NCBI GenBank assembly: GCA_044869275.1
Contig: JBIOXB010000217.1
Coordinates: 10,095-74,094 of the forward strand
DNA: 64,000 nt
Origin: a bacterium
GTDB taxonomy: Bacteria; Zhuqueibacterota; Zhuqueibacteria; Zhuqueibacterales; Zhuqueibacteraceae
Direction of reading: 5' to 3'
Each line of letters opens with the position of its first letter. Position 1 is the stretch's first letter. Position numbers and translations under genes: made by a program. The notes below the pieces were generated by a model. The model was not told the DNA's origin, made no database searches, and worked only from the letters and a program-made list of their open reading frames with translations. Below are positions 6,393 to 38,227 of this stretch, one piece after another.

Positions 6393-9300
6393 TTATCCCA
6401 CCAAGATTTTCCGCACGAGGTCACCTGCGGATGAAATCCATAAATGTGTGCCGTCAAAAGCCGCGCTTTGCGGAACCCCGGGCAAGGCCAGGGTGCCCAA
6501 GTTGGCATTTGTATCCACGTCTGCCTTGTGTAAGATGCCTTCCACCACGCCGGAATTGCTTTGCCGCTGCGCCAAGAGCCACATGTTCCGGCCGTCGAAA
6601 ACCAGGTCATGGCTATCCGGAAAAACCTCCTCCGGCTGTTGGGTCAATACTCGGCCGTTGACCTCGATCTTGTAAACCGCCTGATCACCCGAGTCCGATT
6701 GACAGGCCACCCAAACATGCGCGCCGTCAAAGGCCATTGCCACCGGGGTGGCAATCAGATTGGTATTGAGCGGCGCTGCTTCTTCCTCGACGTTTCTGAT
6801 CTGGAAAAGTCGCCGCGCCGCATCTCTTTCTGCACCGATCCAAACTTGGACGCCGTCAAAAACAAGAGCCGTTGGCGTGAAACTGGCACCGCCTTCACGC
6901 AGGCTTTTGTTCACGATAACCTCGGGGTCTTCCGTATCGACGATTCTTACGGTCGCAGAGCCTCTATTCGCAATCCAAAGATACCTGCCGTCGAATACGA
7001 TTTCGCGAGGCTCGGAAAAATCTCTATCCAAACGCGTAACCACAGTTGCGGTGGCCGGATCGATTGCAAAAACTGAATTTCCCTCGGGCGAAGTGAACCA
7101 GACGTGCGTGCCGTCAAATGCGCCGCGCCACGTTCTTGCACCCACCGCAATCGGGAGGCCACCGCCAGGATCGGTTGTGTCCAAGCCTATCCTGGTGAGA
7201 GTCGAAGTCCTTGCGCTCGCGACCCAAATCGTGCGGCCATCGAAGACGAGGCCGGCAGGCGAGGAGGCTTCGAAAAAATAATTCCTGCCGTCGCGATAAG
7301 GCAGGCAGGGCAGCGTTTGCGCCAGTAAAGGCACAAACTGACGGCGATCGCGATGGGCGGCAGCGATCTTTCTGTTGCCGGCATTCAGGGCCTCTGCAAC
7401 CGTTCGTGGGATTTCGCCTTCCGCCAGGCCGGCCGTGCAGGCGGGCGTGAACGGAATGCGATCGGCCTTCAGCTCGCAAAGCAGGTTGTTCAGAATGAAT
7501 TCAACCGTGGCGGGGCCACCGGGCAGCCATTGCGGCAGCATCGCGGCGTGAAAGAGCGATTGCACCGTGGCCTCGCCATTGCCGCACGCCGGGATTTGAT
7601 AACCGATATGGCGCGCCTGGATGTTGCAAATCTCATTCAGGGCATCAGCGACGGTTTCAGTCTCTGGAGGATAAAGTTCGTTGGCGCATTCGGGCGGTCT
7701 ATAGGAAACATTGTCCGCGAAGCTGAGATTGGCGTTAAAGGAAATGGGCAAGTGCGCACATTGCTGATCATCCAGCCACAGTGTCGCGCGCACTTGCTGG
7801 CTAGGTGTGATGGCATCCAGGATCCAGCGGCAGCTCGCCACGCCGGCGCCACAGTCCTTGCCGTCCTCCGTGCGGCGCACTCTGGTTTCGGTTTCGAAAA
7901 CACGGCCACCACCCCCTTCTCCGATACTGCCGTTGCCATCCGTGATTTCAAACCTTACGCGCAAACCGCCTATGGGTTGATCTGCGCGCGTCACGCCAAC
8001 TTTGAGGGGATATGGCAGCGGTTGGCCGGGCAAAGCTTCCTGCCCGTCGCCGCCGAGATAAAAGAAATTAAGTTGTTCCGCCAGCGGTGTAAAAATCTCC
8101 CGGCAATCTTTCTTAACCTCCCAACCAGTGCTGGAGAGTTGCAGCACGGCCAGGCGGCAGTAGTGATGATGAATGCCGTGTCTGTCCTGAAAGTAGGAAT
8201 TGCCATTTTCATCGCGCGGCCAGTCAATACCGTCGTTGGCGGTGCGGGCCGGGATTAGCCAGTAGTCGCCGGTGTGATATGAATCGACGGACACAAATTG
8301 AACTTCGATGCCGTCCTCTAAGGAATGCCAAACGCCTCCTTCTATGCTTGGCAGGGCCGTTTCACTGTCGTTGATCTGCGTCGGTGTGGCGATGATCTCG
8401 GCGGCTTCTCGTTGATCCCACCGGCGCACCTTCCGGCCGGGACCGGTTGGAATCGCGGCCGTGGCGGTCATGGGATCGTAGGTAAGAAAACGATCCGAGC
8501 TCACATTGACCAAGCGTACGAGCGCGCCGTTCCCCTCTCCCAATTCATGTGCGTCATCAATGATTTCGACCCATTGCCCGGCCTCGAACTTCAGCAGCTC
8601 ATCACGGCTGGGCGCGCTGAGCGTGAGTTGTCCTGTTTGGAGGTCGATCGCGTCAATGGCGCGCAGAATGCTGCCGTTGTCCCGCGACCACTTGAAGGTA
8701 GCATCGGGGTCAGGGCGAAGTTCTTTGGAGGGGCGATGAACTTCCACGCGATAGAGTTGATTTTGCGCGCGACGAAAACCGAGAGTCGAAGCCGCGGAGC
8801 AGAGATCAGCAGCGTTTGTTGCTGGGCTAACAACGCGGGCGGCAAGGCGCACGGGGCCGCGCTCCGTCAATTTCTTCCAATCCGTAAAGCTTGGATCGCA
8901 AATCTTGTCCAACTGCAAGAGTTCAAACGGGCCGAGTGATTTCACCTGCCAGACGGTCTTGGTGCGTGTGGCGGTGTCCGCGCCGCCGAGCGCGGCTTCG
9001 CGCAGGCTGGGATCTTCGACGCTGGTGATTTGGCGTTGCCAGACGTCTAAATAGGCGAGATAAAAACCGGGCTTGGTTGGGAACGCAAGCCCGGGCAGAT
9101 CAGGTTGCTCGCCCCAAAGCAAATAGTTCTCGTTTTCACAGAGAATGCCATCGACGTAATAGCGTCCTTGGCCAATCAGCAGGGGAGGCTGGCCCCGCGC
9201 CAGCAATACTTTCAATTCGTCTTTCTCGGCTTTGCTCAGCCCCGAGAGTTGGTCGATTCTCGGCGCGTCGATCAGCTCGAACCCGGCATCATCCTTGGGT

Positions 9301-9467
9301 GCGCCGCAATGTCCAATCAAATCTGTTGTGCCGGTCGCAATGCGTTGATTGGTGATATCGACCTGCTCGTTCCAATCCGCATCGAGCTGCACGCGGCCCT
9401 GCTGCAGGCGCACGCCGCTGTAATGTTTTTCACGCTTGAAAGTGGAGCGGGTGATGTCGGATTTCAA
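6393..9467 (-). CDS. DUF6519-domain eCIS fibre-type protein with Ig-like domain and C-terminal 7-bladed beta-propeller
   Basis: N-terminal QQGRVQLDADWNEQ, NQLYRVE, FKWSRDNGS, GDYWLIPART; seven [AV]FDG..[IVLM]W repeats; TTG start with AGGAG RBS. Confidence 0.85.
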   Translation of the reverse strand: MKSDITRSTFKREKHYSGVRLQQGRVQLDADWNEQVDITNQRIATGTTDLIGHCGAPKDDAGFELIDAPRIDQLSGLSKAEKDELKVLLARGQPPLLIGQGRYYVDGILCENENYLLWGEQPDLPGLAFPTKPGFYLAYLDVWQRQITSVEDPSLREAALGGADTATRTKTVWQVKSLGPFELLQLDKICDPSFTDWKKLTERGPVRLAARVVSPATNAADLCSAASTLGFRRAQNQLYRVEVHRPSKELRPDPDATFKWSRDNGSILRAIDAIDLQTGQLTLSAPSRDELLKFEAGQWVEIIDDAHELGEGNGALVRLVNVSSDRFLTYDPMTATAAIPTGPGRKVRRWDQREAAEIIATPTQINDSETALPSIEGGVWHSLEDGIEVQFVSVDSYHTGDYWLIPARTANDGIDWPRDENGNSYFQDRHGIHHHYCRLAVLQLSSTGWEVKKDCREIFTPLAEQLNFFYLGGDGQEALPGQPLPYPLKVGVTRADQPIGGLRVRFEITDGNGSIGEGGGGRVFETETRVRRTEDGKDCGAGVASCRWILDAITPSQQVRATLWLDDQQCAHLPISFNANLSFADNVSYRPPECANELYPPETETVADALNEICNIQARHIGYQIPACGNGEATVQSLFHAAMLPQWLPGGPATVEFILNNLLCELKADRIPFTPACTAGLAEGEIPRTVAEALNAGNRKIAAAHRDRRQFVPLLAQTLPCLPYRDGRNYFFEASSPAGLVFDGRTIWVASARTSTLTRIGLDTTDPGGGLPIAVGARTWRGAFDGTHVWFTSPEGNSVFAIDPATATVVTRLDRDFSEPREIVFDGRYLWIANRGSATVRIVDTEDPEVIVNKSLREGGASFTPTALVFDGVQVWIGAERDAARRLFQIRNVEEEAAPLNTNLIATPVAMAFDGAHVWVACQSDSGDQAVYKIEVNGRVLTQQPEEVFPDSHDLVFDGRNMWLLAQRQSNSGVVEGILHKADVDTNANLGTLALPGVPQSAAFDGTHLWISSAGDLVRKILVG

Positions 9468-9867: not shown

Positions 9868-10080
9868 AAGTCGAAACGCAAGAATTGCTCGAAAAAGTGG
9901 AAAACTTGATCCCAAATTTCATCGATATTTACTCGACAGCTTCGGCAAACGGCAAGTTGTGGATTATCAGCTGAGTGCCGAGATCACCGAAGAATATGCT
10001 CCCGAAATCACAATCACGCCGAAGAGTTTCTTGACGCGGCGCGAAATTATCTTGCCGGTAAGACTGCCTCTCCACGATAA
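9864..10080 (+). pseudogene. HEPN-domain gene remnant (internal deletion plus frameshift)
   Basis: ATGA overlap with the MNT stop; MKVETQELLEK, then GKLDPKFHRYLLDSFGKRQVVDY in another frame, then HAEEFLDAARNYL to TAA 10080; the central part expected of HEPN is missing. Confidence 0.75.
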
Positions 10081-10099
10081 CTTTCTTTGCGATAACTTT

Positions 10100-10206
10100 A
10101 CTTGCATATTCCAATCCGCATCGAGCTGCACGCGGCCCTGCTGCATGCGCACGCCATTGTAATTTTTTTCGCGTTTGAAGGTGGAGCGGGTGATGTCGGA
10201 TTTTAA
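10100..10206 (-). pseudogene. orphan copy B of the 5' end of the DUF6519 fibre gene
   Basis: Translates LKSDITRSTFKREKNYNGVRMQQGRVQLDADWNMQV; TTG start changed to TTA; direct repeat of 9362-9467. Confidence 0.9.
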
Positions 10207-10366
10207 GAGTTGCTCTTATCGAGAAGAAAATTGTTTTCAAAACTATTACTGCAAAAAGATTTTTTTCCGTCGTAGCCTTGCCCACTTGTGGGGCAATGGT
10301 GCTTGGCCAGATTGCTCTATCCAGAGAGCCGTGCCGACGCTTCGGCAGCGGGGACTACGAAAACTA

Positions 10367-10456
10367 CCGCATCCATCTGCACGCGCCCCTGCTCCATGCG
10401 CACGCCGGTGTAATGCTTGGTAGGATTAAAGGTGCGTGGTTGATGTCGGATTTCAA
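10367..10456 (-). pseudogene. orphan copy C of the 5' end of the DUF6519 fibre gene (more diverged, frameshifted)
   Basis: TTG AAA TCC GAC ATC (MKSDI), frameshift, then TFNPTKHYTGVRMEQGRVQMDA. Confidence 0.85.
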
Positions 10457-10840
10457 GGAAGCGTCCAATAAGCCATGAAACTATCAACGCCAATTATTTA
10501 ATTAAATCGCTCTGTCAGCTTTCAATTGTAGGCTTCTATCTCTCATTTCTAGGGTCGAAGGCTAATTGATGTAGGGTCAACTAGTGGCCGTATTTCTAAA
10601 AGTTTCCATGTCCGCGCGACGTCGAGCCGTATTCGAATCTGAATGTGGCCATGGTGTTGTTATGTGATTGCCGCAGCGGATTCTAAAAGATTAGTCGCAT
10701 GCGCTAAATCGTCGCGCGATTGCCATCGGAGGATGATGCCACAGTTTTGCTTGCTCCGGTTCATGAAATCAATTGACCTAAAGAGCCGGTCTCGGTTTAC
10801 GAAAGCCTGCATTTTGATGAAATTAAGATCTCTTGTGATT

Positions 10841-11437
10841 CTAAAGTAGCGAGTTATTGTCTTGTCGTTCATTTAACTCATTGAGCGCCTTTTTTGCAAT
10901 GTCCTGCACATCGGGGCTCTGATCACTCAGAGCCTTGTTCCAAACGTCCTGCAACCTAGGACGATTCAGTCTATACAGAGATTCGGCAGCATGGTCTCGC
11001 ACAAAAACATCATCATCTTGCAGCAATGCAATCAGTGCTTCTATAGATTGCTCCGTGTTGTAGTTACGGAGTTGTTTCGCAACTTCCTGCCTAGGGGGCC
11101 TTGAACGCTTCTTTCGATATACTTCAGCAACAAGGCAGTCGGCGATTTCCGGGCTTGAGTATTCGGCAAGCGATAACAACGCCTCTGCACGTACGTCTTC
11201 TGATTGATCAGATTCAATTGCCATGATAAGGTGAGGAATAGCTCTGTTATCATGAATCAAACCTAGATTGCAAGCTGCAGTACCTCGTACCTCTGGATCA
11301 GTGTCTGAAAGAAATGGAATAATGAGTTCAACGGCATTGCTAGGCTTTAACTCACCTATTCTATCTAAGGCGGCCTCTCTGATAGCAGCGTTCGGGTCCT
11401 GTAGATTCTGCAAAATTGCTTTCATCTCTTCTGCCAT
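10841..11437 (-). CDS. HEAT-repeat (PBS-lyase-like) protein, candidate immunity protein
   Basis: Repeated L.D.D..VR..AA..L units; AT-rich; starts 26 nt after the stop of the toxin-tipped gene; AGGTGA RBS. Confidence 0.85.
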   Translation of the reverse strand: MAEEMKAILQNLQDPNAAIREAALDRIGELKPSNAVELIIPFLSDTDPEVRGTAACNLGLIHDNRAIPHLIMAIESDQSEDVRAEALLSLAEYSSPEIADCLVAEVYRKKRSRPPRQEVAKQLRNYNTEQSIEALIALLQDDDVFVRDHAAESLYRLNRPRLQDVWNKALSDQSPDVQDIAKKALNELNERQDNNSLL

Positions 11438-11463
11438 ACTTCACCTATCTTCTGGTATGAATT

Positions 11464-14400
11464 TCATGTTGACCATTTTAATATTTCAGCAGGAATTAAC
11501 CCCTCGATCAAAACTTCTCCATTTTTCTCCATATCTTGTTTGACCGATCTAGCTAATCGCCTGACCTTTGGCTTGTCATGAGCAAGCATGAGTCTTTCAA
11601 CATCGTCAGGTGTATATATTTTTATAGTTCCTTTGTTCTTGAGTGCATCTAAAGCATCCAATGTTGCTTTCAAAATTCTATTTTTCTTTGTGAACTTAGC
11701 CGTACCCCTTCTAGTAATTGAGAATGAGACAAACCGGCTAGTTTGTTCACTTTGCTTCTTCCGAACATGCTCCCAAGGAGTCTGAATTTCAGCCTCTTCG
11801 GCCTCTTTACTTCCTATTTCGAACCCCAGTGGACCAGCTTTGTAATAATCATCGCCTCTAAATAGAAAACGTGAGCCAGAAGCGCTAGCTTGCTCGACTT
11901 CTTCTTTTGGTTTTAACACTTGCCCATTGCCAAGTTCACGCTCAGGGCTAAATCCAGCAACAATCTTGAAGTTATTCCGCGATTCTTGTATGCGAAGCAC
12001 TTTAAATCGGTATCTAAGCTTCAGCAGCACGAGCAAACCATTTACGATTATTTTAGGTAACCATTTTCTTAGTCTCTGTCCTAATAACTGGCGGGCTCGT
12101 TCAAATGCTCGATCCTGCCGTTCTCGCAGTCTTCGTTCTTGATCAGCCCTGCGATCTCTTCTCCGCCCACCTCTCCTCCCAAACCTCCTCCTCGCCCTCG
12201 CCCTCAACCTCCGAAATCCTCTCCCAATCCGCCTCCCCACTCTCCTCAACGCCCCTCCAACCCTCCGCGCCACGCTCCTCAATCTTTGCATAATCCGCTG
12301 CGCAATCGCGCGAAGCCGGCCAGCAACACGCCCAGCCGGCCGGCGCAAGCGGCGCAATAGCCAGTTGGCAACGAAGTCGATCACCGCAATTGCCGCAGCA
12401 GCAATGGCCTGCGCGAACTTCTGTCCGGCATTGCCGGATTTCACGGCTTTGAGGAAGGCAAAGAACTTTTCAAACGCTTGCAGGATGCGGCTCACCGTGC
12501 CCCACGCGGCCTGCAAGCCTTCGATAATCGCCATGACCGCGCCGGCAGCCAGTATTATAAGCGATACTAGTTTCTCAATCAAGATTTGAATTAATACCGT
12601 CGGGATTGCGGACTTCAGAGCTTCCCAGGCCATTTGGCCGACTTGCGCGAGTTGAATGCCGCCGTTGCGCAGAAAATTCCAAATGGCAATACCCAGACCT
12701 AAAACTTCTTCGAGCTTTTGATTGAACCAATTCTGTATCGCTGCTTTGAAAGCTGTCCACAAATGGTTGCGAACGCCATCCCAAGCAGAGGCACCGAGAT
12801 TGCGAAGCCAACGTATCGGATTAGCGGCGATATCCTTGATCAGCGCGGCAAACGCCGCCAGCGCTTGCACCACGGATTTCGCAAAGTTGATCGCGCCTTG
12901 CACGACACGGCCTACGACGTCAACCGCGGCAAGATAGGCACGCTCGAGCAGGCCCAATGCCGCATCCAAAACGGCGCCCAGAGCATTCAGCGCGCGTTGC
13001 ACATCCTCTTTCAGGCGATCCGCCAAGGCGTTGACCACGGCTTCGGCGCGATTGACACCTTCCTCAATTAAATTGCGGAAACGATCGCGCAGGCCAGGGA
13101 AGCCCGCGAGCACGACTCCTCCAATAGCGATCAGCGCCTGCCCGGCGATCCGGATAAGGCCCACCACGGCTTGCCGCGCGCGCTCGATAGCTGCGACGGC
13201 CAAACGCTTTGCTGCATCGATGGCGGCGCGCACGGCGCGGCGGGCGGCATCGAAAACCGCTTTGATGCCTTCTTTGATTCTATTGAAAAATGCCGTGGCC
13301 TGATCCGCGAGCCAGCCGAAGAAGCCGCTGGATTCCGATTCCCGTTCGCCCTCGCGGCGCTGGCGCTCCGCCTCGCGCTCAGCCCCCTGGCGCTCCTCCT
13401 CGGCGCGGCGGTTGCCTTCCTGAATGTGGCCGGCAGACTCGGTGTTGGCGCGATCTTGCTCGCGGCCAATCTCTTGCTCGTTCTGCCGCATGACGCGATC
13501 AGATTCGGCGCGGTTGCGATCCACCAGCGTGCGCTGCTCTTCTGTCCACTGCTGGCGTTGCTGTTGCACCTCTTGTTGCGCGGCCGAGCGCTCGCGCTGT
13601 TGCTCAGCAGCGTTTTGTTCTTGCAGTTGCGCGATTTCCTGGTCGGCATTGGCGCGCTCTTCCGTTACCTGGCTCTGATGCTCTTCCCGGCGCGCGGCAA
13701 CTTCACTTTGGCCCTGGCTCAGGGCATTGCTGATCTCTTCGCCGCGTTGTTCTCGCGCGATGACGGAGGCGGCAATATCCATTTCGCTCCCGCCGGCAGC
13801 TGCGCCGTTTCCTCCTGCAACTGCGGCTCCACCTCCCGCACCCGTCGTTGCCTCAGCGCCCGCCGCGCCATTGCTGCCGCTCGGAATCTGCGCCGTGAGC
13901 GTTTCATTGGGATCGACATTCGTCGGAAAGATTTCATTTTCACCCATGGGCTGCGCCGCATCTTGCAAGCCTTGCGTGTGCGCCTCGGCCATGCTGCGCT
14001 CGAGCTGAATTTGCTGTTGGCGCGCTTGCGCGGGATCGGCATTGCCCTCCAGAGCCAGCGTGGGCGTTGGACCGGCATCGACTTCCAGTCCGGAATCGCT
14101 GATGGGCAAACGGCTGATGGAAGCTTGCATGCGTTGTGCGTCGTTTGCCGTGAGCTCGCCCTGTTGATCACTGGTGACGGCAGGAGTACGCACCGCTTGC
14201 GTGGGAGAAGGCGGCGGCGCCGGCAATGGTGCCGGTTGAGGCGTGCGAACAGACTGGCCCTCAGGCGTGCGTTCGACTTGACGGAACGCGGTAGTGGAGG
14301 GCGGAGGTACGCGCTGGGCCACGGGTGCTTCATGCGTTTCGGGCGCGCCTGAGGGCCGCGGCATTTGCGGCGGATGGCTTGTCAACTCGTCGCGTTGTGC

Positions 14401-16773
14401 ACTAACTGAGCGTGCCGCTGCGCCTGAAACCTGCGGCAATGCGGCTTGCAACTGTATCGGCGCCAATTGGTGCAAGCCCGCCATTGCCTGGCCGGGATCA
14501 TTCGTTTGCGAAAGATCTGGAGGTTCGGAGGGTGTGGGATCAGGAATCGCTTCGCCACCGCCGGAGGAGGCTCCGGCGCCTGCCGCCGCACCACTGCTTG
14601 CGTCTTCCGCAATCATGGACATCGCCGCTTGCTGCTCGCCGGATTCGAGCAAAGCACCGCTTGCCGGCGGAGCGGCAGTTTCTACGCCTTCTTCTTCAGG
14701 AATGCCTTCAAGCTCCGGAGCTGGTGCTGCTGCGGTCGTTTCCAAACTCGCTGCTTGCTCTTCGGCCGGCTCCGGCGGTGTCAATGTTTCGAGAGCCGCC
14801 TCAGGCACCGGCGTTGCGCTCGCGGTTTCGACTTCCGGTGCGATCGTCGAAGGTTCAGTCTCTGTGGCAAATGGAAGCTCTTCTGCTGAAGATGCGGCTT
14901 CAGAAATAGCATCTGCCGGCTCAGCCTCCACCGGCGCCTCGGCTTCGGGAGGGACTTCCGATTCTTCAGGCGTGGAGACGAATTCTTCGGCGGGCGCGAC
15001 TGCAGCCACTTCCGGCGAGAGCGCTGCTTCTGATCCTTCACCTTCATCGACGAACTCATCGGCTTCTTCGGGCGCTTCGCTACGCCGCGCTTGTGCCATG
15101 CGTTCTTCAGTTCTGCCGCTCTCTTCTTCCTGCTCAGCAGGGCTGGCCTCCTCTTCTGGGGCAGCTCCAACAGCACTGATCGGAGGAGCGGAGGCGGCAG
15201 TCGCTTGCTCTGTGGGCGCAGAAGTTTCTTCTGGCGATGTTTCTTCTTCGCTTGGCGAGATTGCTTCTGCTGAGGCGGGTTCTCCCAATGACTCGACAGG
15301 TGTTTCTTCCGCAACAGCTTCTTCTTGCTCTCTTGGCTCAGGAGCCTGCCGGGTTTCGACACGTGTATTTGCCTGATCTCGAGCCTCGCTTATTTCTGCA
15401 GAAGGGGATTCTCGTTGCAGACGCCGGACAGCAAAAATCTCTGGCGCCAGGAGAGCAGCGGCGCCAGTTCGCAGCTCACCTCTTTCCGGTACCATTTCAT
15501 CAGAAAATTCGGAGGCAGAGAAATGCGCATCGGGCGAAATGATTTCACGCCGGCTGCCGGTTTGTGGCTGCGAGGTTATTCGAGATGATCGAGCTGCGGC
15601 TGATTCAGTTGAAGATGAAGGCGCTTCGGTTTCTGTGGGCACGGGTTGAGCTAACAGCGTCTGCAGCCGTTCCCATTGCGAGGGGGAAATGCGCAGCCGC
15701 ACCTTTTCCAAGACCATCTCGCGTGTCAAAGTATCCAAATTCGCGAGACGCTGCCGGATGCCGCCCAACTCATCACTGGGATCAAGTTGAAAATTGAGCA
15801 CCACCCATTCGGCCAGCCGCTCGTCTGTATTTTCCAGTTGTCGCGGACTTGTCGACGTGTTGGAAAAACTCTGACCCGCGATTCGCCGCGCAATCACATT
15901 TGGCGGCGCCGGCGTCAAGCTGACTGCAATTTTGCCATTGAAAGTGCGACTGTTGGATAGCTGTTGCGCCGCACGCTCGGCCTCATGCTCGCCCGGCTCG
16001 TGTTGCCGGTTCAATTCATAATGAAGAGGCGATGTTGCCAGCGCGGCCGGCACTGGTGAAGGCTGTTGTTGCACCACATGCGTTAATTCATGCGCCAGCA
16101 GCCAGCGTCCGGGCGACGTATCGGGCTGGTATTGACCGGCGCCAAAAAAGATGTCGTTGCCATGTGTGAAGGCCTGTGCATGCAACTCCCGCGCAAGCTC
16201 GCCCGCCTCGGCGCCGTCATGCACGCGCACCTGGCTGAAATCATGGCCGAAACGCGGCTCGAAATAGGTGCGTGCTGCGTCCGGCAAAGGCCGGCCGCGG
16301 CCGAACAAGGACTTCATGCGATCGATCAGCTTACGAGGAAGCTTCGAAGGCTGGCCGGAAAGCCCTTTGGTTTGCACACGTTTCCCTTTGTCCTGCTCTT
16401 CCTCTTCATCCTTCTCGTTTTCGCCTTTTTTCTCCTCTTCGGCTTCAGCCGCACGCAAGCGCAGCTTGGGTTGGGCTTCAGGAAAAACGCGCCGGAGCAG
16501 AAGCCCGCCCGCTGGTTTTACAGAATTCGGGCCCGTAATACCTTCCGCGACCGGGCCGGACATCATAGCGCCGGCAATACGATCGGCTTCCTGCTCGTAC
16601 TCATCCCCATGCTGGCCGAGCCTGAGCTTGGCCTGCACCAATGGGAATGCGGGCTGGAACAGCCTTTGGTCTTCCGTGCGCGGCACCGGTGAGCGTGAGC
16701 GCTCAGCCATGCGCTTGGCACGCTGCGGCGCCGGCGAACAAGGCTGCGGAGATTTTGGAACAGGGCTTTTCAA
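11464..16773 (-). CDS. DUF4157 (eCIS core) protein, 1769 aa, with helical tape-measure-like region and C-terminal ADP-ribosyltransferase-like toxin domain
   Basis: GRPLP...FEPRFGHDFSQVRVH...AQAFTHGNDIFF...LLAHELTHVVQQ; acidic/Pro linker; coiled coil; amphipathic helices; C-terminal LFRGD / FVSFS / EKNGEVLIEG. Confidence 0.85.
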   Translation of the reverse strand: MKSPVPKSPQPCSPAPQRAKRMAERSRSPVPRTEDQRLFQPAFPLVQAKLRLGQHGDEYEQEADRIAGAMMSGPVAEGITGPNSVKPAGGLLLRRVFPEAQPKLRLRAAEAEEEKKGENEKDEEEEQDKGKRVQTKGLSGQPSKLPRKLIDRMKSLFGRGRPLPDAARTYFEPRFGHDFSQVRVHDGAEAGELARELHAQAFTHGNDIFFGAGQYQPDTSPGRWLLAHELTHVVQQQPSPVPAALATSPLHYELNRQHEPGEHEAERAAQQLSNSRTFNGKIAVSLTPAPPNVIARRIAGQSFSNTSTSPRQLENTDERLAEWVVLNFQLDPSDELGGIRQRLANLDTLTREMVLEKVRLRISPSQWERLQTLLAQPVPTETEAPSSSTESAAARSSRITSQPQTGSRREIISPDAHFSASEFSDEMVPERGELRTGAAALLAPEIFAVRRLQRESPSAEISEARDQANTRVETRQAPEPREQEEAVAEETPVESLGEPASAEAISPSEEETSPEETSAPTEQATAASAPPISAVGAAPEEEASPAEQEEESGRTEERMAQARRSEAPEEADEFVDEGEGSEAALSPEVAAVAPAEEFVSTPEESEVPPEAEAPVEAEPADAISEAASSAEELPFATETEPSTIAPEVETASATPVPEAALETLTPPEPAEEQAASLETTAAAPAPELEGIPEEEGVETAAPPASGALLESGEQQAAMSMIAEDASSGAAAGAGASSGGGEAIPDPTPSEPPDLSQTNDPGQAMAGLHQLAPIQLQAALPQVSGAAARSVSAQRDELTSHPPQMPRPSGAPETHEAPVAQRVPPPSTTAFRQVERTPEGQSVRTPQPAPLPAPPPSPTQAVRTPAVTSDQQGELTANDAQRMQASISRLPISDSGLEVDAGPTPTLALEGNADPAQARQQQIQLERSMAEAHTQGLQDAAQPMGENEIFPTNVDPNETLTAQIPSGSNGAAGAEATTGAGGGAAVAGGNGAAAGGSEMDIAASVIAREQRGEEISNALSQGQSEVAARREEHQSQVTEERANADQEIAQLQEQNAAEQQRERSAAQQEVQQQRQQWTEEQRTLVDRNRAESDRVMRQNEQEIGREQDRANTESAGHIQEGNRRAEEERQGAEREAERQRREGERESESSGFFGWLADQATAFFNRIKEGIKAVFDAARRAVRAAIDAAKRLAVAAIERARQAVVGLIRIAGQALIAIGGVVLAGFPGLRDRFRNLIEEGVNRAEAVVNALADRLKEDVQRALNALGAVLDAALGLLERAYLAAVDVVGRVVQGAINFAKSVVQALAAFAALIKDIAANPIRWLRNLGASAWDGVRNHLWTAFKAAIQNWFNQKLEEVLGLGIAIWNFLRNGGIQLAQVGQMAWEALKSAIPTVLIQILIEKLVSLIILAAGAVMAIIEGLQAAWGTVSRILQAFEKFFAFLKAVKSGNAGQKFAQAIAAAAIAVIDFVANWLLRRLRRPAGRVAGRLRAIAQRIMQRLRSVARRVGGALRRVGRRIGRGFRRLRARARRRFGRRGGRRRDRRADQERRLRERQDRAFERARQLLGQRLRKWLPKIIVNGLLVLLKLRYRFKVLRIQESRNNFKIVAGFSPERELGNGQVLKPKEEVEQASASGSRFLFRGDDYYKAGPLGFEIGSKEAEEAEIQTPWEHVRKKQSEQTSRFVSFSITRRGTAKFTKKNRILKATLDALDALKNKGTIKIYTPDDVERLMLAHDKPKVRRLARSVKQDMEKNGEVLIEGLIPAEILKWST

Positions 16774-16992: not shown

Positions 16993-18591
16993 TCAGTTTT
17001 CCCCTCGTGCTTTGGGTTTGGAGGTGGGCTTGGCCTTAGCTGGAGGCCGGGTTTCGAGCTCAGGCTTGGGCTCGGGAGCAATGGGCCTCATGACGGCCGG
17101 CCGATCGAACAGTGAAGTTTCACCTCCATCCGGCACGCAAAGCAAAGGCTCGAACGCGCAGCGGCAATCATCAAAATCCTGCGGCGAGCGGATGACGGCG
17201 AGGGGAGCGTAATAATGCGTCACGCCGTGCGGCGGCAGCGCTGCCGGTAGCTGCCTTTCTTCATCATCCGGATCAGGCACTTGCGGCCAGTCCACGTCGC
17301 CCGTGATGGTGCGAGCGGGAATCAGCCAATAGTCGCCAGGGCGAAAGGTCGCAAAGGGTTCAAATTGAATTTGCACGCCGTTTTCCAGCGTAATCCAATC
17401 GGCTGTAATCCAATCAAGTTTTTTGAGATCTGCTGGGATCTGTATGGCACCGTCTTCGAAACTGATTCCTGCTTGAGAAAGGCTACCTTCTTTCTGATCC
17501 CAACGTCGCAGCAGCGGGTGTTTGGCGAGATCGATGCTGGCTGCCGGTGCGCCGGCGAGCGTCACTTGCAAATTCGCACGATCTATGGCCTGCACTTGCA
17601 ACAACGGTTCAGCGCGTTCGTGCAAAACGTATTCATCATCCAACAGCTCTACCCAATCGCCCGGCGCCAAGCCGAAACGGCCGTCGCGGCCGAGATGAGC
17701 AATTGTGACGGTGGTCAGCGTCAAAGCGTTGCTGGTGACTTCATGCAGGGCGAGGATCGGAAAGACGACTGCGCCGTTTTCCCGCGACCATTTGAAGGCC
17801 CCGGGGCGATAGTCTTTCGTGACCACTGAACCTGTGCTCCTTTTCTGAATCTCCACGCGATAGAGTTGATTCTCTGCGCCGCGATATTGCGCTTCGGGAG
17901 AAATTGTGCAAGCCTCGACTTCCGGCTTCGTGGAGGGCCTGGCGCGCGCCTTTAGACGGCCGCGGGCCGGTTGCCACTTATCGACCCAACTCCGCCAATT
18001 GCCTTTGATGTCTGCGCAGGTCCAGTCCTGCGCGGCAGAGCGAGCGATTGAGTCATTTGCCCCACCGCCTTTCCCGGGCATTTCATTCGTGACTTTTACC
18101 TGGCACACGACCTTTGAGCGGCTGGCCGTGTCCGGCCCGTCGAGCGCCACTTCCCGCAGGCGCAAATCCTCGACGGACGTAAGGTGGCGCTCCCAAACAT
18201 CAAGATAGACGAGATAAGGCGGTGGCGGCAGCGGAAACCTGGTACGGTCGAGGGGATAGTCAAGCTGATCAAAATAGGTGCTCACCAGCTCACTCTCGTC
18301 GGGCTTGAATCGCCGCGCCATTTCGCACAACATACCGCTGACATAATAACGGCCCGTTCCAATCTCGAAATCCGAACCATCAATCTTGGGCCGTATGGCG
18401 AAGCCCAAATGCTCGCCGGACGGCCCGCCAAAAGGGCCGATGATGTCCGCAGCCAGGGTTTGCAAATAGTGCAATAGAATCGCCATTTGCTCATTCCAAT
18501 CCGCATCGAGTTGGACGCGGCCCTGTTGCTGCAACACCCGCAGAAAATGCTTGCCGGGATCAAAGGTCTGGCGTGAAAAATCACCTTTCAT
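16993..18591 (-). CDS. DUF6519-domain protein (short paralogue without C-terminal adhesin)
   Basis: MKGDFSRQTFDP...QQGRVQLDADWNEQ, ENQLYRVE, FKWSRENG, GDYWLIPART; GGAGG RBS. Confidence 0.85.
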   Translation of the reverse strand: MKGDFSRQTFDPGKHFLRVLQQQGRVQLDADWNEQMAILLHYLQTLAADIIGPFGGPSGEHLGFAIRPKIDGSDFEIGTGRYYVSGMLCEMARRFKPDESELVSTYFDQLDYPLDRTRFPLPPPPYLVYLDVWERHLTSVEDLRLREVALDGPDTASRSKVVCQVKVTNEMPGKGGGANDSIARSAAQDWTCADIKGNWRSWVDKWQPARGRLKARARPSTKPEVEACTISPEAQYRGAENQLYRVEIQKRSTGSVVTKDYRPGAFKWSRENGAVVFPILALHEVTSNALTLTTVTIAHLGRDGRFGLAPGDWVELLDDEYVLHERAEPLLQVQAIDRANLQVTLAGAPAASIDLAKHPLLRRWDQKEGSLSQAGISFEDGAIQIPADLKKLDWITADWITLENGVQIQFEPFATFRPGDYWLIPARTITGDVDWPQVPDPDDEERQLPAALPPHGVTHYYAPLAVIRSPQDFDDCRCAFEPLLCVPDGGETSLFDRPAVMRPIAPEPKPELETRPPAKAKPTSKPKARGEN

Positions 18592-18600
18592 GATACCTCC

Positions 18601-21177
18601 TTAACTCGCAAAAAAAATCCCCGCATCCATTCCCGCGGGAGTATACTCGTCCAAGCGTGTGCGCAGGTTGGCTTCGCGCTGCGGCTGATAGAGATCGTGA
18701 AACACGCCCATCTCGGATTCGTCATCCGCGCCGCGCTTGATTTCGGCCGGGCCGGTGTCGGCCGGCCGGCCGTAATCCGGCAGGCCGTAGCGCGGCGGAT
18801 CGCTGTTGAATTGCGGCCGCACACGCAGGCGCTCGCCCTCCAAAGCTTGTTGCATTTCATTTTGGTCGATTTCATTTCGTTTGAACCGCTCGCGAATCGG
18901 CTTCTCCACCAAATCCGGCTGGCAGTTGTAGCGCCGTGGCGTGCGCGATCCCGGCGGCACGTAGCAAAAGCGCATGCAGCCGATCTGCCGGCGCGCGACG
19001 GTTACCAATCCGGTGAAAATGCTGTTTTCCGCCAGCTCGATGGCGTGCGTTTGCACTTGGCCGATCACGGTGCTGCGCACCACCCTCAGGATGGCATGTG
19101 CTGCCGGGCAGCCCGGCTCGCCCAGTGCTTCTTCCTCGTGGCTGGTGGCATCGAGAGCGCTGTCGCTGAGATGTATCGAAATCGGATCGGTTTTGATCTC
19201 GTCCTGGCGCACGAGAATCGAGCCGATGAGGCTGTGGCTGACGTTGATGCTCGCATTGGTGTTCAACAGATACAGGCTGGCCTCTTTGGGGCGTTCCGGC
19301 TCGCAATCGTGGCCGATTTCCCAGCCCGGCACCAATGTGGTGTGGCGAATGTTGACTTCCTCCATCTCGCCTTTGACCTCAATGCCGCGGCCGGAAAACA
19401 GCAAGCCGTCTACGGTGAAGCGCGCTCTGGCCGCGCCGTTTACGGTAAGCGCATCCGGGCCGGGCACGGTATAGTCCAGCAGCCGCAAAACCGGCCGCCG
19501 GAGATTGGCCGCGCGAATTTGCAGGCTTTTGCCCGCGATCATGTCGATCTTGATTTGCTCGGTGTAGGCGCCGCTATCCGTAATCTCGATAATCGCGTTG
19601 CGCGGTTTTTGGCGCTGCCAGGAGGCCAGCGCATCATTGATGCGTTTCAATTCTTCCGCCTCACCCACGCGGAAGATCACCAGCCCCAGCGCGATTTCAT
19701 CCTTATAGGCATCTTCCAGCAACATGCGATTCAACAAGATCAAATCATCGTCCTGTGGATCTTCTTCGAGAAGCCGGCGTGTTTCTGCTCGCAGCTCGAT
19801 TAAACGAAAGCCGGGCAGATCATAAAGACTCGTGTTCGCCATGAGCCTGTTCAGCTCGTCCAGAAGTGCGGGTCGCAGCTTGGCAAGATCCGGTGGAGTA
19901 GTCTCGTCGCCAAAGAGCGCCTGCGTTTCGGGTGTAAGCTGTTGAAACAAATTATTTGAAACTGGATCGCTCGGCGCTTTGAGCTTGGAAACAAACACTG
20001 CTTCGTCGTTCAGATCATCGTCCAACAGCAGAGGCGAATCGGCAGGTTGAAACAAAGGCCGGTCATACTCGCCGCCGCCGATATCCGCACTGAAGCCATA
20101 ATGGTAAAAGACCCAGACTTTCTTGGGCAACTGGTTGGGCGGAAAAACCATGCGGCCAAATTCAGGATCAACTGCGACAAAACCAGGCTTGGGCTCGTAT
20201 TGCCAAGTGCTCAGATCGGCCGGGACGATGGCCTTACGTGGAATCGGCTTGCTGCGATCCGCGTCTGGCAGGTTTGCCCATCCCGCCCAATCGTCCGAGG
20301 CCCAAACCGCGAGACTCTTGTCTGCGCCGTAATAATGCGCAGAGGCTTGCCGGATTTCCGTGCCGTCCGCTTGCGTAATGACTTCTTCGAATCCTTTCAG
20401 GCGAATCGGCGCCGGCAGATTCAATTCGCCGGCGATCTGTGTCGGCTCCGGCTCCGGTCTCCACGGCGAGTAAAGCTGTAAATCGTTGGCCAGCACACTG
20501 AAGGTGTACGCATTCATGCCCGAGCCTTCGACATAGTAAGCGGGAGTGCGGGTGACCGAATAGGTGTGCATGCGCCAGATGAAAAGGCCGACGCTGGGAA
20601 TATTGTATTTCCCCTGGCTGCGATGCGAGTTGGGGCGGCGCACGTCAATCGTGTGCGCCAATTCATCAAAAGGCCCGTCGAGGCGCGAGAGCGCGTCGCC
20701 GTTGCGCAGGTCGACGGTGCGGCCGAGATTGAGGCGCAGATGATTGAGCGATTGCGTCATACCCAGCAAAACGTAAAACTCCACGGCGCGCGCCGGCCAG
20801 CCTGCCACATCGCGCGCCAGCAGCTCCAACAACGCGAGCGTGCCTTTGCGCCGGCGATTGCGAATGGTGTTGGCCACCTCGGCGCGCGGAACCAGAATCT
20901 TGTTGCGTTCACGCCCTTGTGTGGTCGTAATCTCGCCCGGCTGGCCGGCTTCAAACACGGGCTCGAAACCGGCGAGATCACCGATATACGGCACCACCCA
21001 ATCCTGGCAGGTCTCGATGAACCAGTTCTCATATAGCTGTGCGATATCCGCTTCCACCACCCCGAGCTGTTCCGAGAGCACGCGCAGCAGCGCTTTGAGC
21101 GGCAGACCCTGTTCCGCGTCGCGTTGGCGATAGATCGCCGGCAGCAATTCGTAGAGCCGGTCTTTGGTATCCTTCAT
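18601..21177 (-). CDS. baseplate wedge / phage tail protein (P2 gpI-like N-terminus)
   Basis: LYELLPAIYRQRD...NWFIETCQDWVVPYIGDL...RRRKGT; position directly after the gpJ-like genes. Confidence 0.8.
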   Translation of the reverse strand: MKDTKDRLYELLPAIYRQRDAEQGLPLKALLRVLSEQLGVVEADIAQLYENWFIETCQDWVVPYIGDLAGFEPVFEAGQPGEITTTQGRERNKILVPRAEVANTIRNRRRKGTLALLELLARDVAGWPARAVEFYVLLGMTQSLNHLRLNLGRTVDLRNGDALSRLDGPFDELAHTIDVRRPNSHRSQGKYNIPSVGLFIWRMHTYSVTRTPAYYVEGSGMNAYTFSVLANDLQLYSPWRPEPEPTQIAGELNLPAPIRLKGFEEVITQADGTEIRQASAHYYGADKSLAVWASDDWAGWANLPDADRSKPIPRKAIVPADLSTWQYEPKPGFVAVDPEFGRMVFPPNQLPKKVWVFYHYGFSADIGGGEYDRPLFQPADSPLLLDDDLNDEAVFVSKLKAPSDPVSNNLFQQLTPETQALFGDETTPPDLAKLRPALLDELNRLMANTSLYDLPGFRLIELRAETRRLLEEDPQDDDLILLNRMLLEDAYKDEIALGLVIFRVGEAEELKRINDALASWQRQKPRNAIIEITDSGAYTEQIKIDMIAGKSLQIRAANLRRPVLRLLDYTVPGPDALTVNGAARARFTVDGLLFSGRGIEVKGEMEEVNIRHTTLVPGWEIGHDCEPERPKEASLYLLNTNASINVSHSLIGSILVRQDEIKTDPISIHLSDSALDATSHEEEALGEPGCPAAHAILRVVRSTVIGQVQTHAIELAENSIFTGLVTVARRQIGCMRFCYVPPGSRTPRRYNCQPDLVEKPIRERFKRNEIDQNEMQQALEGERLRVRPQFNSDPPRYGLPDYGRPADTGPAEIKRGADDESEMGVFHDLYQPQREANLRTRLDEYTPAGMDAGIFFAS

Positions 21178-21190
21178 CTAAAGATCTCCA

Positions 21191-24151
21191 TTATCCCGCA
21201 ATCGGCTTGAGCACGAGCGTATCCGGCACGTTGGGCGATAAGTAGGCGATTTCCGCCGGCTTGATCCTTTTCAACGGATCCACCACGGCATAATCCGCTC
21301 GCGCCAACTCGATGCTGACACGTTCTTTTCGGGCAATGAACTGGTCTTGTTGTAGCCTCAGGCTCTCCAACTCTCCTTCTTCAGCCGGCGAGCGCGAGGG
21401 CTTGGCTTCAAGCTCCTGAATTCTCTCCTGCATTCTCAGATACGTCACCAGCGCCTGCGTGTCCAGTGCGTCGAAATCGTCAATATCAACGTAATCCACG
21501 CCCGTGACCGCCTGCATGGCGCTGAGGGCCTCGCTAAGCAACACGTCCTGCCCCAAGGTACGGCGCTCGAAGCTGAAGGCGTCCAGCAGTGCCGCGCGAA
21601 TCCGGGGCTCGGTTGCTTCCCAAAGATAATCCGGCAACAAACGTACATTCGCGCTCATGACGATCAATTTGAGCTCACGCAGCTCGACTTCCAGGGGCTG
21701 GTGCGGATCGCCGAATTGAAACAGCGCCTGGCGCAAGTTGCGATACAGGTCGGAATCTTTCGTGATGGGAATGTCGTCTGCGCCGGCAATGGTGAGGTAT
21801 ACCAGCTCGCGGCGGCCGTCGGACAGCCGGGTCGCAAGCGCTTTGCCGATGCCGGCGAAGGCGCGCGCGAAGTCCGCATAGTCCTGCACCGAGACCGCGC
21901 GATCGAGCGCTTTCAAATGCAACGGGGCATTTTGCCGCGCGTGATCGCGATCTTCCGGATCCGCGCCGCCGCTGGCGGCTTGCGGATTGAACACGCCTTT
22001 GACGCCGAGCGGGCGAATGCTCAACAGGCTGATTTGCTCGGCGGCGACATTGCCGGCCCTGCCAATGCCGCTGCGATAAACCGCCCTCACGTTTTCGATG
22101 CCGGTGGGCAGGCGGCCGCCGCGCACGCCATCGCCGAAGATGATGGTGGTTTTGCCTTCGTTATCGGTTTGGACGAAATAATCGCGATCGTTCGATCCCG
22201 AGGCCACCAGGCTGTCGGTTTCGTGCCAAAGCACGTCGTTCACGCGCACGCGCAGCGTGTTTTCGATGCCGGCAGAGGTCGAGGCCGAGACGTAAGTGAG
22301 CGGCGATTGCCGCAACGAGAATTTTTGAAATACCTTGCTGCCGTCGCCGCTGCCCAGAATTTCGAGGCGGGTTTCACCGTGTGTCGCGCGCACGACATTG
22401 GCGTTGATGGTGACGGTGCCGCGCTTGTAAGAAAAAGCCAACCGGTTGGCAAGCTCGAGCGTGGTGTGGGTTTTGTCACCGGGCAGATCCTTCCCGTTGA
22501 TTTCAATCTGCTGCACACCCTGCGTGACGCCCGACAACATGACTAATTCTCTCCCTCTGACCGCGGTCACTGCTTCAATGTCGTCCCGCTCGCCGGAAAT
22601 CATCAGCCATCGCCCGGATTCCAAGCCGTCATAGACGTCATCCAATTCGATGCGGCGAGCGTTCTCTTCAGCAGCGCTTACTTCCTCGGAAGTTGGGTTC
22701 GATTTGCTCAGTTTGTACCCAATGGAATTCATGATAGGTTCTTCGTCCAGTTCCAACAATTCGCTTTGGGAATAAACAGCGCTGCCTCGGATGACATCAA
22801 ACTTCTCATTTGAGGTGTCCAGCCATTTTTGGCCGGTGCCCAGATTCAAGGTAATTGCCGTAGTTTTTGCGCTTATTCCGTATGCAGCTCGCGTTCGATT
22901 CTCGGTAGAGACGACAACAAAAACTACCGGATTTTCGGGTGGCTTGGTTCCAGATGGCACCTTCTCAGTGGGCTTGCGAATTACCAAATAGTCGCCATTT
23001 TTGATTCCATCATAGTAATTATCCAAGAAAACAGTTTCACCGTTCTCGCCATCAAGCTCCCACTCCTTCCATTCTAATGGGTCACATATTTCGCCAGACT
23101 CTTTGAAGGTCACTTTTTTCGGCACATTATGCCCAAATAGCCCGGCCATAAGACGCATGGCATAAACCTTCACGGAACTCGCCTCTGTCACCTGTGCCGT
23201 ACGCCAGGAATCATACGACGGCGCACGCAACTCTTTACGCAACTCTGTCAGTGCCTGCACACTGAGGTCGGACTTTTCACGAAAACCGCCTGGCAAGCTG
23301 CGAAACAGGTTTCTGGAGCTGGCCGGCGGAATTGAAACCGGCGGCGGCGGCGTGCGCAGTCGGTCGAAAAATTTGGTAAAGGATGTGGGTCCTCCAGAAT
23401 TCGAATCGGGGTCGTCGGCCGGCACGTCGAGTGTAGCCTTGGTGCGATTGGCCGCGTTATCCAATGTGACGCTGACCACGCGGCGGGTCACTTGAGAAGC
23501 GCCAAAATTGATCAATAAGATGTCATTCGTTTTAAGGTTGGTAGCGACTCCATTGAAGTAGATTTCGCGTGTCTGGGCCGTGATATATTGCGGCCGGCCC
23601 ATGCGCGGCCTGAGCTCGTTCCACACCGCGCGGCCCTTCAACGGTTCGGCGGTTTCGAACGATTGCGGCAATTCCCCCGGACCGGGAATGCTCTGGGCGC
23701 GCACACCGATGGGAATCACGCCTGCGAAGCCCTTTTCCATCGTAAAAGCGAGATACACGCTCGCGGCCACGCCCGGGCGCAGCTTGTACCCCACCAATTG
23801 CGCCAGCTCCAAAATCGAGCGGCGTTCGGTCGCGGTCAGGAGGTAGCCTTCGTTCGCCATCCGCTCTTGATAGAATGCCAGCACCTCCCCCACAGTCGCG
23901 CAGACGTCCAACAGCGCGATCGACGGATCCTCGCCCGCACGCGTTTTCAGTGCCAGCAACGGGTTGAGCGCGTTTTTGACGTTCGGGTCGTCGAGCTGCA
24001 GATCGGTGAGGCGCGCCTGCATCGTTTCCAGAAATGTAGCGTGGGTGCCCACGCGATACGCCAATGACTTCAGGCCCGGCCGATTTGCGATCGGCAGAGG
24101 CGTCAGTCTTTCAATCCCTTCACAGCAACCGCAAGTACAGGTTCCGTTCAT
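21191..24151 (-). CDS. putative baseplate assembly protein (gpJ/gp6-like) 2
   Basis: FYQERMANEGYLLTATERRS, FGDGVRGGRLPTG, GGADPE, RAVSVQDY. Confidence 0.9.
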   Translation of the reverse strand: MNGTCTCGCCEGIERLTPLPIANRPGLKSLAYRVGTHATFLETMQARLTDLQLDDPNVKNALNPLLALKTRAGEDPSIALLDVCATVGEVLAFYQERMANEGYLLTATERRSILELAQLVGYKLRPGVAASVYLAFTMEKGFAGVIPIGVRAQSIPGPGELPQSFETAEPLKGRAVWNELRPRMGRPQYITAQTREIYFNGVATNLKTNDILLINFGASQVTRRVVSVTLDNAANRTKATLDVPADDPDSNSGGPTSFTKFFDRLRTPPPPVSIPPASSRNLFRSLPGGFREKSDLSVQALTELRKELRAPSYDSWRTAQVTEASSVKVYAMRLMAGLFGHNVPKKVTFKESGEICDPLEWKEWELDGENGETVFLDNYYDGIKNGDYLVIRKPTEKVPSGTKPPENPVVFVVVSTENRTRAAYGISAKTTAITLNLGTGQKWLDTSNEKFDVIRGSAVYSQSELLELDEEPIMNSIGYKLSKSNPTSEEVSAAEENARRIELDDVYDGLESGRWLMISGERDDIEAVTAVRGRELVMLSGVTQGVQQIEINGKDLPGDKTHTTLELANRLAFSYKRGTVTINANVVRATHGETRLEILGSGDGSKVFQKFSLRQSPLTYVSASTSAGIENTLRVRVNDVLWHETDSLVASGSNDRDYFVQTDNEGKTTIIFGDGVRGGRLPTGIENVRAVYRSGIGRAGNVAAEQISLLSIRPLGVKGVFNPQAASGGADPEDRDHARQNAPLHLKALDRAVSVQDYADFARAFAGIGKALATRLSDGRRELVYLTIAGADDIPITKDSDLYRNLRQALFQFGDPHQPLEVELRELKLIVMSANVRLLPDYLWEATEPRIRAALLDAFSFERRTLGQDVLLSEALSAMQAVTGVDYVDIDDFDALDTQALVTYLRMQERIQELEAKPSRSPAEEGELESLRLQQDQFIARKERVSIELARADYAVVDPLKRIKPAEIAYLSPNVPDTLVLKPIAG

Positions 24152-26748: not shown

Positions 26749-27110
26749 AGCGTTCTGCTCCGCGCAAAGGTTTCAGTGCGCCGTTCTTCGGTGCGCCGGA
26801 TCAAGTATTGCAACTCTACGCGCAAGGTCGAGTCTTCGCTCGTGACCTGCAACGCCTGCACTTCGATCAAATCCCCCAGCCAGCGCTGCAACGCGGCCTG
26901 AATGCTGAATTGCAGCGCGGTGGCCAGCTCGGAGCTGTTGGGTGCGAACACCAGTCCCAACAAGCCGCTGCCAAAATCCGGCCGGTTGACGCGCTCGCCT
27001 GGGCTGGTGAAAAGCAGTTGCTCGATCATATCGCGAAGATGATCGCCATCATCCGTCACCGCCGTCCGGCCAGCTTTGTCGAAATGAAAAGGATAGTCGA
27101 TATGGGTCAT
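26745..27110 (-). CDS. GPW/gp25 baseplate protein
   Basis: LLFTSPGERVNRPDFGSGL signature. Confidence 0.92.
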   Translation of the reverse strand: MTHIDYPFHFDKAGRTAVTDDGDHLRDMIEQLLFTSPGERVNRPDFGSGLLGLVFAPNSSELATALQFSIQAALQRWLGDLIEVQALQVTSEDSTLRVELQYLIRRTEERRTETFARSRTL

Positions 27111-27113
27111 AGA

Positions 27114-27190
27114 GATGCTCGTTGCTCGATACTCGTTGCTCGATACTCGATGCTTGATACTTGATACTTGATACTTGATTCTTGACGCCT
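27114..27190. repeat. heptamer tandem repeat (about 11 units, consensus GATACTY)
   Basis: gatgctc gttgctc gatactc gttgctc gatactc gatgctt gatactt x3 gattctt gacgcct. Confidence 0.9.
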
Positions 27191-27215
27191 AATTACCTGC
27201 AACTGATTCGCTCTT

Positions 27216-27270
27216 CGTCTCCCCGTCTCCCCGTCTCCCCGTCTCCCCGTCCCCCCGTCTCCCCGTCTCC
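27216..27270. repeat. octamer tandem repeat (GTCTCCCC) x about 7
   Basis: Directly visible; six runs of at least 4 C on the + strand. Confidence 0.95.
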
Positions 27271-27271
27271 T

Positions 27272-27595
27272 TCAAACCCCCTTCACCCTCACCTGCGTCA
27301 CAACGATATTCACCCCCGTGCCGGTGGGCGCACACACGGCCTGGCTATCTTGCAATAATAAAGGAATCCCTCCCGCGCGCACACGCGTCGCGGCCGTCAC
27401 GAATTGCGCCGTAACGCACGGGCCATTCGCCGCGGGTGGCGCCGGCAAGGTGCAGCCAGAGATGGTATAAAGCGCGGGTTGTGTCACAATCGCCTGGCTG
27501 GCGACCTTTACGCGCGGAAACACCGTTGCCGGCTGTGCCTGGCCTGCGTGCAAGCACAACACGGTCGCGCCTTGATGCAGCAAGAATCCCGGCAT
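27272..27595 (-). CDS. PAAR-like (DUF4280-type) spike tip protein
   Basis: GATVLCLHAG...GC...PC...ATRV...PLLLQDSQAVC; small Cys-containing gene after gp5. Confidence 0.75.
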   Translation of the reverse strand: MPGFLLHQGATVLCLHAGQAQPATVFPRVKVASQAIVTQPALYTISGCTLPAPPAANGPCVTAQFVTAATRVRAGGIPLLLQDSQAVCAPTGTGVNIVVTQVRVKGV

Positions 27596-29210: not shown

Positions 29211-29213
29211 GAA

Positions 29214-29507: not shown

Positions 29508-29552
29508 AATTCTCCACTGCCAAAATATTCAAAGAAACAAGAATTGCTGGTC

Positions 29553-31894: not shown

Positions 31895-31961
31895 ATGCCG
31901 CGTACCAAGTGCGCAAATAGCTCTGCGCGGGTGAACTCACTTATCTGGTCGTCTTCTAAGC

Positions 31962-34030: not shown

Positions 34031-34031
34031 T

Positions 34032-35579: not shown

Positions 35580-35580
35580 T

Positions 35581-38221: not shown

Positions 38222-38227
38222 TCACTC

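Follow-up and report, generated by a model that had tools for sequence, protein, structure and literature searches.

A DUF4157 protein with a predicted ADP-ribosyltransferase-fold tip and a HEAT-repeat partner in a contractile injection system cluster of Zhuqueibacterota

The window analyzed here, a 64,000-nucleotide stretch of contig JBIOXB010000217.1 (assembly GCA_044869275.1) from a bacterium of the Zhuqueibacterota, raises a simple question: what does its long DUF4157 protein do, and does the HEAT-repeat gene that begins 26 nt behind it belong with it? We call the protein the effector, its C-terminal domain the tip, and the HEAT-repeat gene the partner. An earlier note, made from the sequence alone, had proposed a polymorphic toxin-immunity cassette with an ADP-ribosyltransferase (ART)-like tip, and that reading is well supported. 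The effector lies in an extracellular contractile injection system (eCIS) cluster and joins a DUF4157 domain and a tape-measure-like trunk to a tip that differs among homologues. Both open reading frames (ORFs), their spacing, and the three tip motifs are where the earlier note placed them (ORF calls and sequence), and profile matches bore out the DUF4157 and HEAT-repeat assignments (Table 1). The TTG start of the effector is uncertain; the database protein begins at M22 and has 1748 aa. A HELTH motif lies in the DUF4157 domain at aa 228.

Predicted fold and catalytic residues of the tip

The structural model of the tip has a split beta-sheet ART fold and is closest to the ARTC (cholera/pertussis-like) members of the class (definitions in PMC10789625, in part; here and below, "in part" marks a paper represented by part of its text). 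Pertussis S1, EcPltA, LT, and CARDS are among the nearest solved folds, with TreX equally close, and the top structural matches are transferases. A first model built from 7 alignment rows resolved strand 1 poorly (pLDDT 69.8) and was superseded. In the later model, the Arg follows an aromatic residue on the first strand, the Ser lies on the second, and the Glu stands at the start of strand 5. Across an alignment of 71 family members, these residues are conserved in 68 (R), 70 (S), and 69 (E) sequences, which supports the prediction of a cholera/pertussis-type ADP-ribosyltransferase fold with a conserved R-S-E triad.

The earlier note had read the triad from LFRGD (beginning at aa 1637; 11865-11851), SRFVSFS (aa 1679; 11739-11719), and EKNGEVLIEGLIP (aa 1749; 11529-11491). 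The triad held up, but the Glu has to be placed with care: E1749 is poorly conserved (D/E in 27% of 71), and the predicted catalytic residue is E1753 in N-G-E. N1751, the conserved H1669 and F1694, and a conserved basic helix (aa 1734-1750) ahead of E1753 complete the set of tip residues considered here. Scabin/pierisin guanine ARTs carry a Q-x-E motif, which does not occur in the 71 members; the residue two before the Glu (E-2) is neither Glu nor Gln but Asn in 66, His in 3, Lys in 1, and a gap in 1. With Glu at that position in none of the 71, the family also lacks the E-x-E dyad (defined in PMC11606950) of the arginine-specific ARTs Tre1 and TreX.

No family for the tip was found in Pfam, PHROGs, or NCBIfam, and sequence searches of the PDB returned nothing significant. 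DUF7587 weakly matches 10 of the 71 members (best E = 1.8e-6); the literature searched contained no mention of it.

Variable ends, a shared tip, and its partner genes

The effector is polymorphic in both directions, a conclusion supported by searches with the trunk and with the tip. The trunk matches phage tape-measure families, and hydropathy places four hydrophobic segments in it, within aa 1203-1473. Searching with aa 1130-1500 found 493 proteins, the best 120 of which were compared (119 besides the query). Mean identity among these 119 homologues is 0.60-0.75 over aa 1161-1480 and falls to 0.01-0.02 after aa 1640; only one of them, Cylindrospermum Cylst_2289, has the window tip. After 14 homologues that did not align at aa 1495 were left out, the ends of 105 homologues and the query (106) formed 33 clusters, the largest of which (39) may be chained. 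The homologue alignment that the earlier note had called for thus found C-termini that vary. We hand-picked 24 trunk homologues for annotation of their tips (top matches plus cluster representatives); six have named tips (Endonuclea_NS_2 twice, HNH, Tox-HNH-EHHH, Ntox15, and GIY-YIG) and two have a PT-HINT domain. One further protein with the shared trunk, P0195 of Allocoleopsis franciscana, has a different end that resembles an R-S-E ART by eye and does not match the tip-family profile.

Conversely, the tip is common to several carriers, occurring also at the ends of Rhs proteins, PT-HINT proteins, and other trunks. The family comprises 151 representatives at 50% identity, and of 125 complete domain ends, 122 are C-terminal.

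Base composition marks the exchanged unit. Effector GC is 0.57-0.64 over aa 1-1560 and 0.38-0.44 thereafter, and GC3 drops from 0.47-0.67 to 0.32-0.40, with the change point at codon ~1562 (window ~12087). Against 10,988 genome windows of 600 bp, the GC of the tip ranks at percentile 0.2, that of the HEAT gene at percentile 2.9. The earlier note was therefore right about AT-richness, which the sliding-window GC check it had suggested also found, but the low-GC unit is larger than the ~135 aa it gave: ~208 codons (a linker of ~60 aa plus the ART domain) together with the partner gene. Since one Logan contig covers trunk, tip, and partner (10116-17200) with 0 differences, an assembly error at the trunk-tip junction is unlikely, although its source run may be from the same sample as the window. 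A second sequencing run covers the HEAT gene and the trunk but not the tip, and is uninformative on the junction. The datasets listed as containing the sequence included none of RNA.

The tip was found in 1 of the 167 genomes of the phylum searched, so it was likely acquired from outside. It was not found in the other 166 genomes or in the plasmids searched, this genome has no second or orphan copy, and the trunk query had no match in 40 relatives. The earlier note had called the tip recently swapped in. The data do not date that swap: no close donor was found (best tip identity, 67%), and tip GC is below that of its own upstream DNA, by 0.01-0.13, in all eight distinct related loci with an intact tip.

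A metagenome scan yielded 14 tip loci, 9 of them distinct, and a partner gene follows the tip in every one. The pairing seen in the window recurs: a HEAT protein stands next to the tip, adjacent and downstream, in 6 of the 14 loci (4 distinct) and is 41-54% identical to the window protein. These partners share a stretch, (S/T)RxPRxxxAxQLxxY, that occurs once in this genome, and they keep their position across loci of 36-71% GC. One locus (L007) has the tip and HEAT partner in a Sle1/2-type layout, and in L005 and L006 the pair stands alone. In L004 (3662-6572), the stand-alone pair occurs twice, ~2 kb apart, against once in L005, which may be a duplication or an assembly effect. In the other eight loci (5 distinct, one with a fragmented tip gene), the neighbor is an unrelated, unnamed protein of 85-102 aa. 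This family had no match in Pfam, NCBIfam, or PDB, and its Atlas matches were all <0.9 and unnamed. In L001 (near 850-1243) and L013-L016, an intact small partner gene follows a fragmented tip gene.

Identity to the window tip is 53-61% for tips paired with a HEAT protein, versus 41-44% for the four intact tips with a small partner. A quick tree (145 columns) separates 5 HEAT-paired from 4 small-partner rows by one branch with support 78; that tip branches sort by partner family is only suggestive. The tip is basic (+5) and the HEAT protein acidic (-12). On these comparisons, the HEAT gene travels with the tip and is a candidate immunity partner. That it is an unrelated neighbor is very improbable: HEAT proteins are common, and the partner profile also picks out 8 further HEAT-like ORFs of this genome, but those are at most 31% identical to the window protein, well below the partners of homologous tips, which also hold their place across the GC range given above.

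The surrounding cluster and related systems

The genes upstream of the effector form an eCIS cluster, as the presence of sheath, Pvc16, AAA ATPase, CIS tube-like, hub-like, spike (OB domain), gp25, and baseplate J genes demonstrates; DUF6519, a DUF4280-like gene (below cut-off), and a second DUF4157 protein complete the set. DUF4157 is present in 15 of 41 genomes (this genome and the relatives searched).

Table 1. Features of the locus, in window coordinates unless another locus is named
Feature	Position	Strand	Basis
DUF4157 polymorphic effector, Tme-like architecture, 1769 aa	11464..16773	(-)	ORF call
HEAT_2/alphaRep-type repeat protein, 198 aa, candidate immunity	10841..11437	(-)	HEAT_2 E 3.3e-35; net charge -12; partner identities
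DUF4157/eCIS_core (PVC metallopeptidase-like) domain, aa 162-237	16063..16290	(-)	E 1.5e-33
Tape-measure-like helical trunk, aa 1151-1451	12421..13323	(-)	phrog_1272 E 4e-10; hydropathy; homologue identity
Arg-rich segment, 27 Arg within aa 1501-1560, directly before GC change point	12094..12273	(-)	sequence
AT-rich pre-toxin linker, aa 1562-1624, first portion of swapped unit	11902..12090	(-)	GC; homologue alignment
ART-fold tip (predicted), aa 1625-1769	11464..11901	(-)	profile alignment; model; structure matches
R1639, triad Arg	11857-11859	(-)	
S1683, triad Ser	11725-11727	(-)	
E1753, predicted catalytic Glu	11515-11517	(-)	
eCIS cluster upstream of effector, same strand	16993..40540	(-)	domain matches
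Second DUF6519 gene, 1024 aa, downstream border of the effector-partner slot	6393..9467	(-)	domain match
Two decayed copies of first ~90 nt of downstream DUF6519 gene (bounds approximate)	10080..10480	(-)	sequence
85-102-aa partner family members, candidate second immunity family	L009:5395-5688, L010:1726-1983, L011:988-1260, L012:1272-1541, L013:1247-1555		

The effector and partner sit in a slot between two DUF6519 genes. In one relative (G016; L019:5789-11162), the same slot is occupied by a DUF4157 protein whose end differs, resembling a PD-(D/E)xK nuclease by eye, and by a TPR-repeat partner. Two other loci from relatives (L018, L021) have long DUF4157 proteins, each with its own small downstream genes. 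The two decayed DUF6519 copies, one without its start codon and the other frameshifted, separate the HEAT gene from the DUF6519 gene at 9467; they suggest turnover, with repeated insertion at the effector-partner/DUF6519 junction. The DUF6519 protein itself ends in FDG..W repeats resembling a beta-propeller, possibly a receptor-binding part. Three further observations concern the surroundings. At 9436-10162 (plus strand), a minimal nucleotidyltransferase gene (Pfam NTP_transf_2) and, behind it, an ORF that resembles a HEPN remnant by eye and had no Pfam or NCBIfam match form an opposite-strand insertion within the cluster. The second DUF4157 protein (414 aa; 30402-31646, minus strand) lies beside the AAA ATPase gene, its C-terminal part unannotated. 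Two tandem genes at 2783-5824 (plus strand) each combine C-terminal TPR repeats with an N-terminus that resembles an outer-membrane beta-barrel (below cut-off).

The closest known design is that of Tme from Streptomyces davawensis (PMC11126660, in part). Both proteins have an N-terminal DUF4157 domain, a long low-complexity region, tape-measure homology, hydrophobic helices, and a C-terminal enzyme, and each is the longest ORF of its cluster; an Endonuclea_NS_2 (EndA-type) tip like that of Tme ends two trunk homologues of the effector. This is a likeness by description rather than by sequence comparison, and the effector differs in having an ART tip instead of a nuclease and a partner gene behind it. 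Tme-like effectors lie immediately upstream of baseplate genes, whereas the window effector lies downstream. Because of this difference in gene position, we do not class it as a Tme-like member, but propose that it works like Tme. Sle1-type effectors, including RS14790/RS14785 of M. eburnea, in which a toxin-immunity pair was validated, are likewise CIS cargo resembling tape measures; their tips vary and an immunity gene lies downstream (PMC13277306, in part). Unlike the effector, Sle1 has no DUF4157; the RS14790 tip may overlap the tip family.

A 2012 paper had already described variable-tip DUF4157 toxins, Tox-ART-RSE, and HEAT immunity, though not in combination in the table rows covered here (PMC3482391, in part). 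The PVC-metallopeptidase (DUF4157) toxins, like the effector, have a constant DUF4157 N-terminus and variable tips (PMC3482391 and PMC8213781, both in part). Of the Tox-ART-RSE pattern (RxDxR, S, [DN]xN, E), the tip has R-x-D, S, and E; the second Arg is absent and [DN]xN was not placed. HEAT is a listed immunity class, but in the part of the 2012 paper available it is paired with REase-7 and Ntox34, and Tox-ART-RSE is not listed with PVC delivery and has Imm41 and ADP-ribosylglycohydrolase as its immunity. A 2021 census of eCIS loci counted 0 Pertussis_S1 and 0 Enterotoxin_a domains, along with 5 ADPrib_exo_Tox and 4 HEAT_2 domains; two of its HEAT_2 genes adjoin long genes in arrangements that resemble L007 and tme (PMC8213781, in part).

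Among antibacterial ARTs, RhsF-RhsFi of Chromobacterium violaceum (bioRxiv 10.64898/2025.12.06.692724; PDB 9ZDM) likewise has a small ART-like tip with no known target, and the all-helical RhsFi occludes the active site, much as we propose for the HEAT protein. RhsF is carried by a T6SS Rhs protein, and the N-x-E and Phe of the tip family are D-x-E and Tyr in RhsF; along the S and E strands the two match collinearly but weakly, short of significance (E = 0.54). The best 60 of 68 PDB matches to the HEAT profile do not include RhsFi, nor do the structure matches listed for the tip include 9ZDM. TreX-TriX (Xenorhabdus bovienii) and Tre1 (PMC11606950) modify FtsZ and are E-x-E enzymes, in contrast to the N-x-E tip family, and TriX is not a HEAT protein. 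RhsP2 (PMC12340436) binds RNA through basic residues just before its catalytic Glu, where the tip is also basic; it was considered as a relative and rejected on the structure matches. Tne5 was rejected as well, being of the K1392-E type. PT6 (Nachmias preprint, in part), which is DUF4157-linked and toxic only in the E. coli periplasm, is unlikely to be the same domain and was set apart by description. No description of this DUF4157-ART-HEAT pairing was found in the open literature searched, some of it represented in part; most subscription papers lie outside that scope.

Proposed function and its alternatives

We consider it probable that the effector is a polymorphic eCIS cargo with a swappable end of predicted ART fold that is likely injected into other bacteria and from which the HEAT protein likely protects the producer. 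By analogy with Tme of S. davawensis and Sle1/2 of S. lividans, DUF4157 would link the effector to the spike or baseplate, and the helical trunk would be housed inside or beneath the tube. The tip would cross a membrane with the help of the hydrophobic and Arg-rich segments. The trunk would thus deliver the tip into the bacterial cytoplasm, where it would use NAD+ to modify an essential molecule. If ARTC chemistry applies, R1639 and S1683 would hold NAD+ and E1753 would support nicotinamide loss and ADP-ribose transfer. The acidic HEAT solenoid would lie over the basic face of the active site, in the way that RhsFi and TriX cover their ARTs.

The acceptor is the least sure step. A nucleic acid (RNA or a guanine base) is a reasonable candidate, and we favor it slightly because the family lacks E-x-E and conserves a basic helix ahead of E1753, and because those sister tips on this trunk that have names are of nuclease type. 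A protein may also be the acceptor. Water is unlikely; in that case the tip would be an ART-fold NAD(P)+ glycohydrolase that drains NAD, with the HEAT protein still its immunity protein. Tne5 provides a precedent, being an ART-fold NADase whose gene is followed by one for immunity (PMC13285283, in part), and the tip family has neither Glu nor Gln at E-2, the position on which acceptor choice depends in other ARTCs. However, Tne5 has K1392 on strand 1 and a dispensable Glu (same source), while the tip family has Arg there in 68 of 71 members and keeps the full R-S-E, and the transferases among the structural matches also speak against it.

The eCIS could instead act in or on the producer population (development, lysis, or stress), as reported for some Streptomyces CISs, with the HEAT protein restraining a self-directed tip. 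Tme does act on its own producer (PMC11126660, in part), and the stand-alone pairs look like toxin-antitoxin modules, but the Rhs and HINT carriers and the diversity of trunk ends fit intercellular conflict better, and we regard this possibility as improbable. More doubtful still is a eukaryotic target (protist or invertebrate), as for pertussis-class toxins and PVC/Afp, with the HEAT protein a chaperone or a guard against incidental self-toxicity. Known eCISs do hit invertebrates (PMC8213781, in part) and several of the nearest folds are pertussis-class toxins or their like; yet TreX, equally close in fold, is antibacterial, and a partner in all loci, from two unrelated families in the same place, is typical of immunity. 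The earlier note had argued for a prokaryotic or self-toxic target. The partner does imply a target that exists in the producer, but that target may also be one shared with eukaryotes (NAD, RNA, or DNA).

More tentatively, and less likely than not, the family may be a hitherto undescribed N-x-E clade of R-S-E ARTs that modify bacterial RNA or DNA via the basic helix and move between eCIS, Rhs, HINT, and stand-alone contexts. Immunity to it would then come from two unrelated families, the HEAT solenoid for one branch and the ~90-aa protein for the others. If so, the effector would be a pertussis-fold antibacterial eCIS cargo with its own immunity gene.

Most of the eCIS toxins that have been tested have no immunity gene, and whether bacteria are among the targets of eCISs is an open question (PMC8213781, in part). 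A tip that has a cognate partner and also ends Rhs toxins gives a direct handle on this question. The family is without a curated model, its acceptor-selecting motif is non-standard, and its acceptor could be new, since antibacterial ARTs have repeatedly revealed new targets. Finally, one toxin family with two unrelated partner families offers a test case for immunity replacement.
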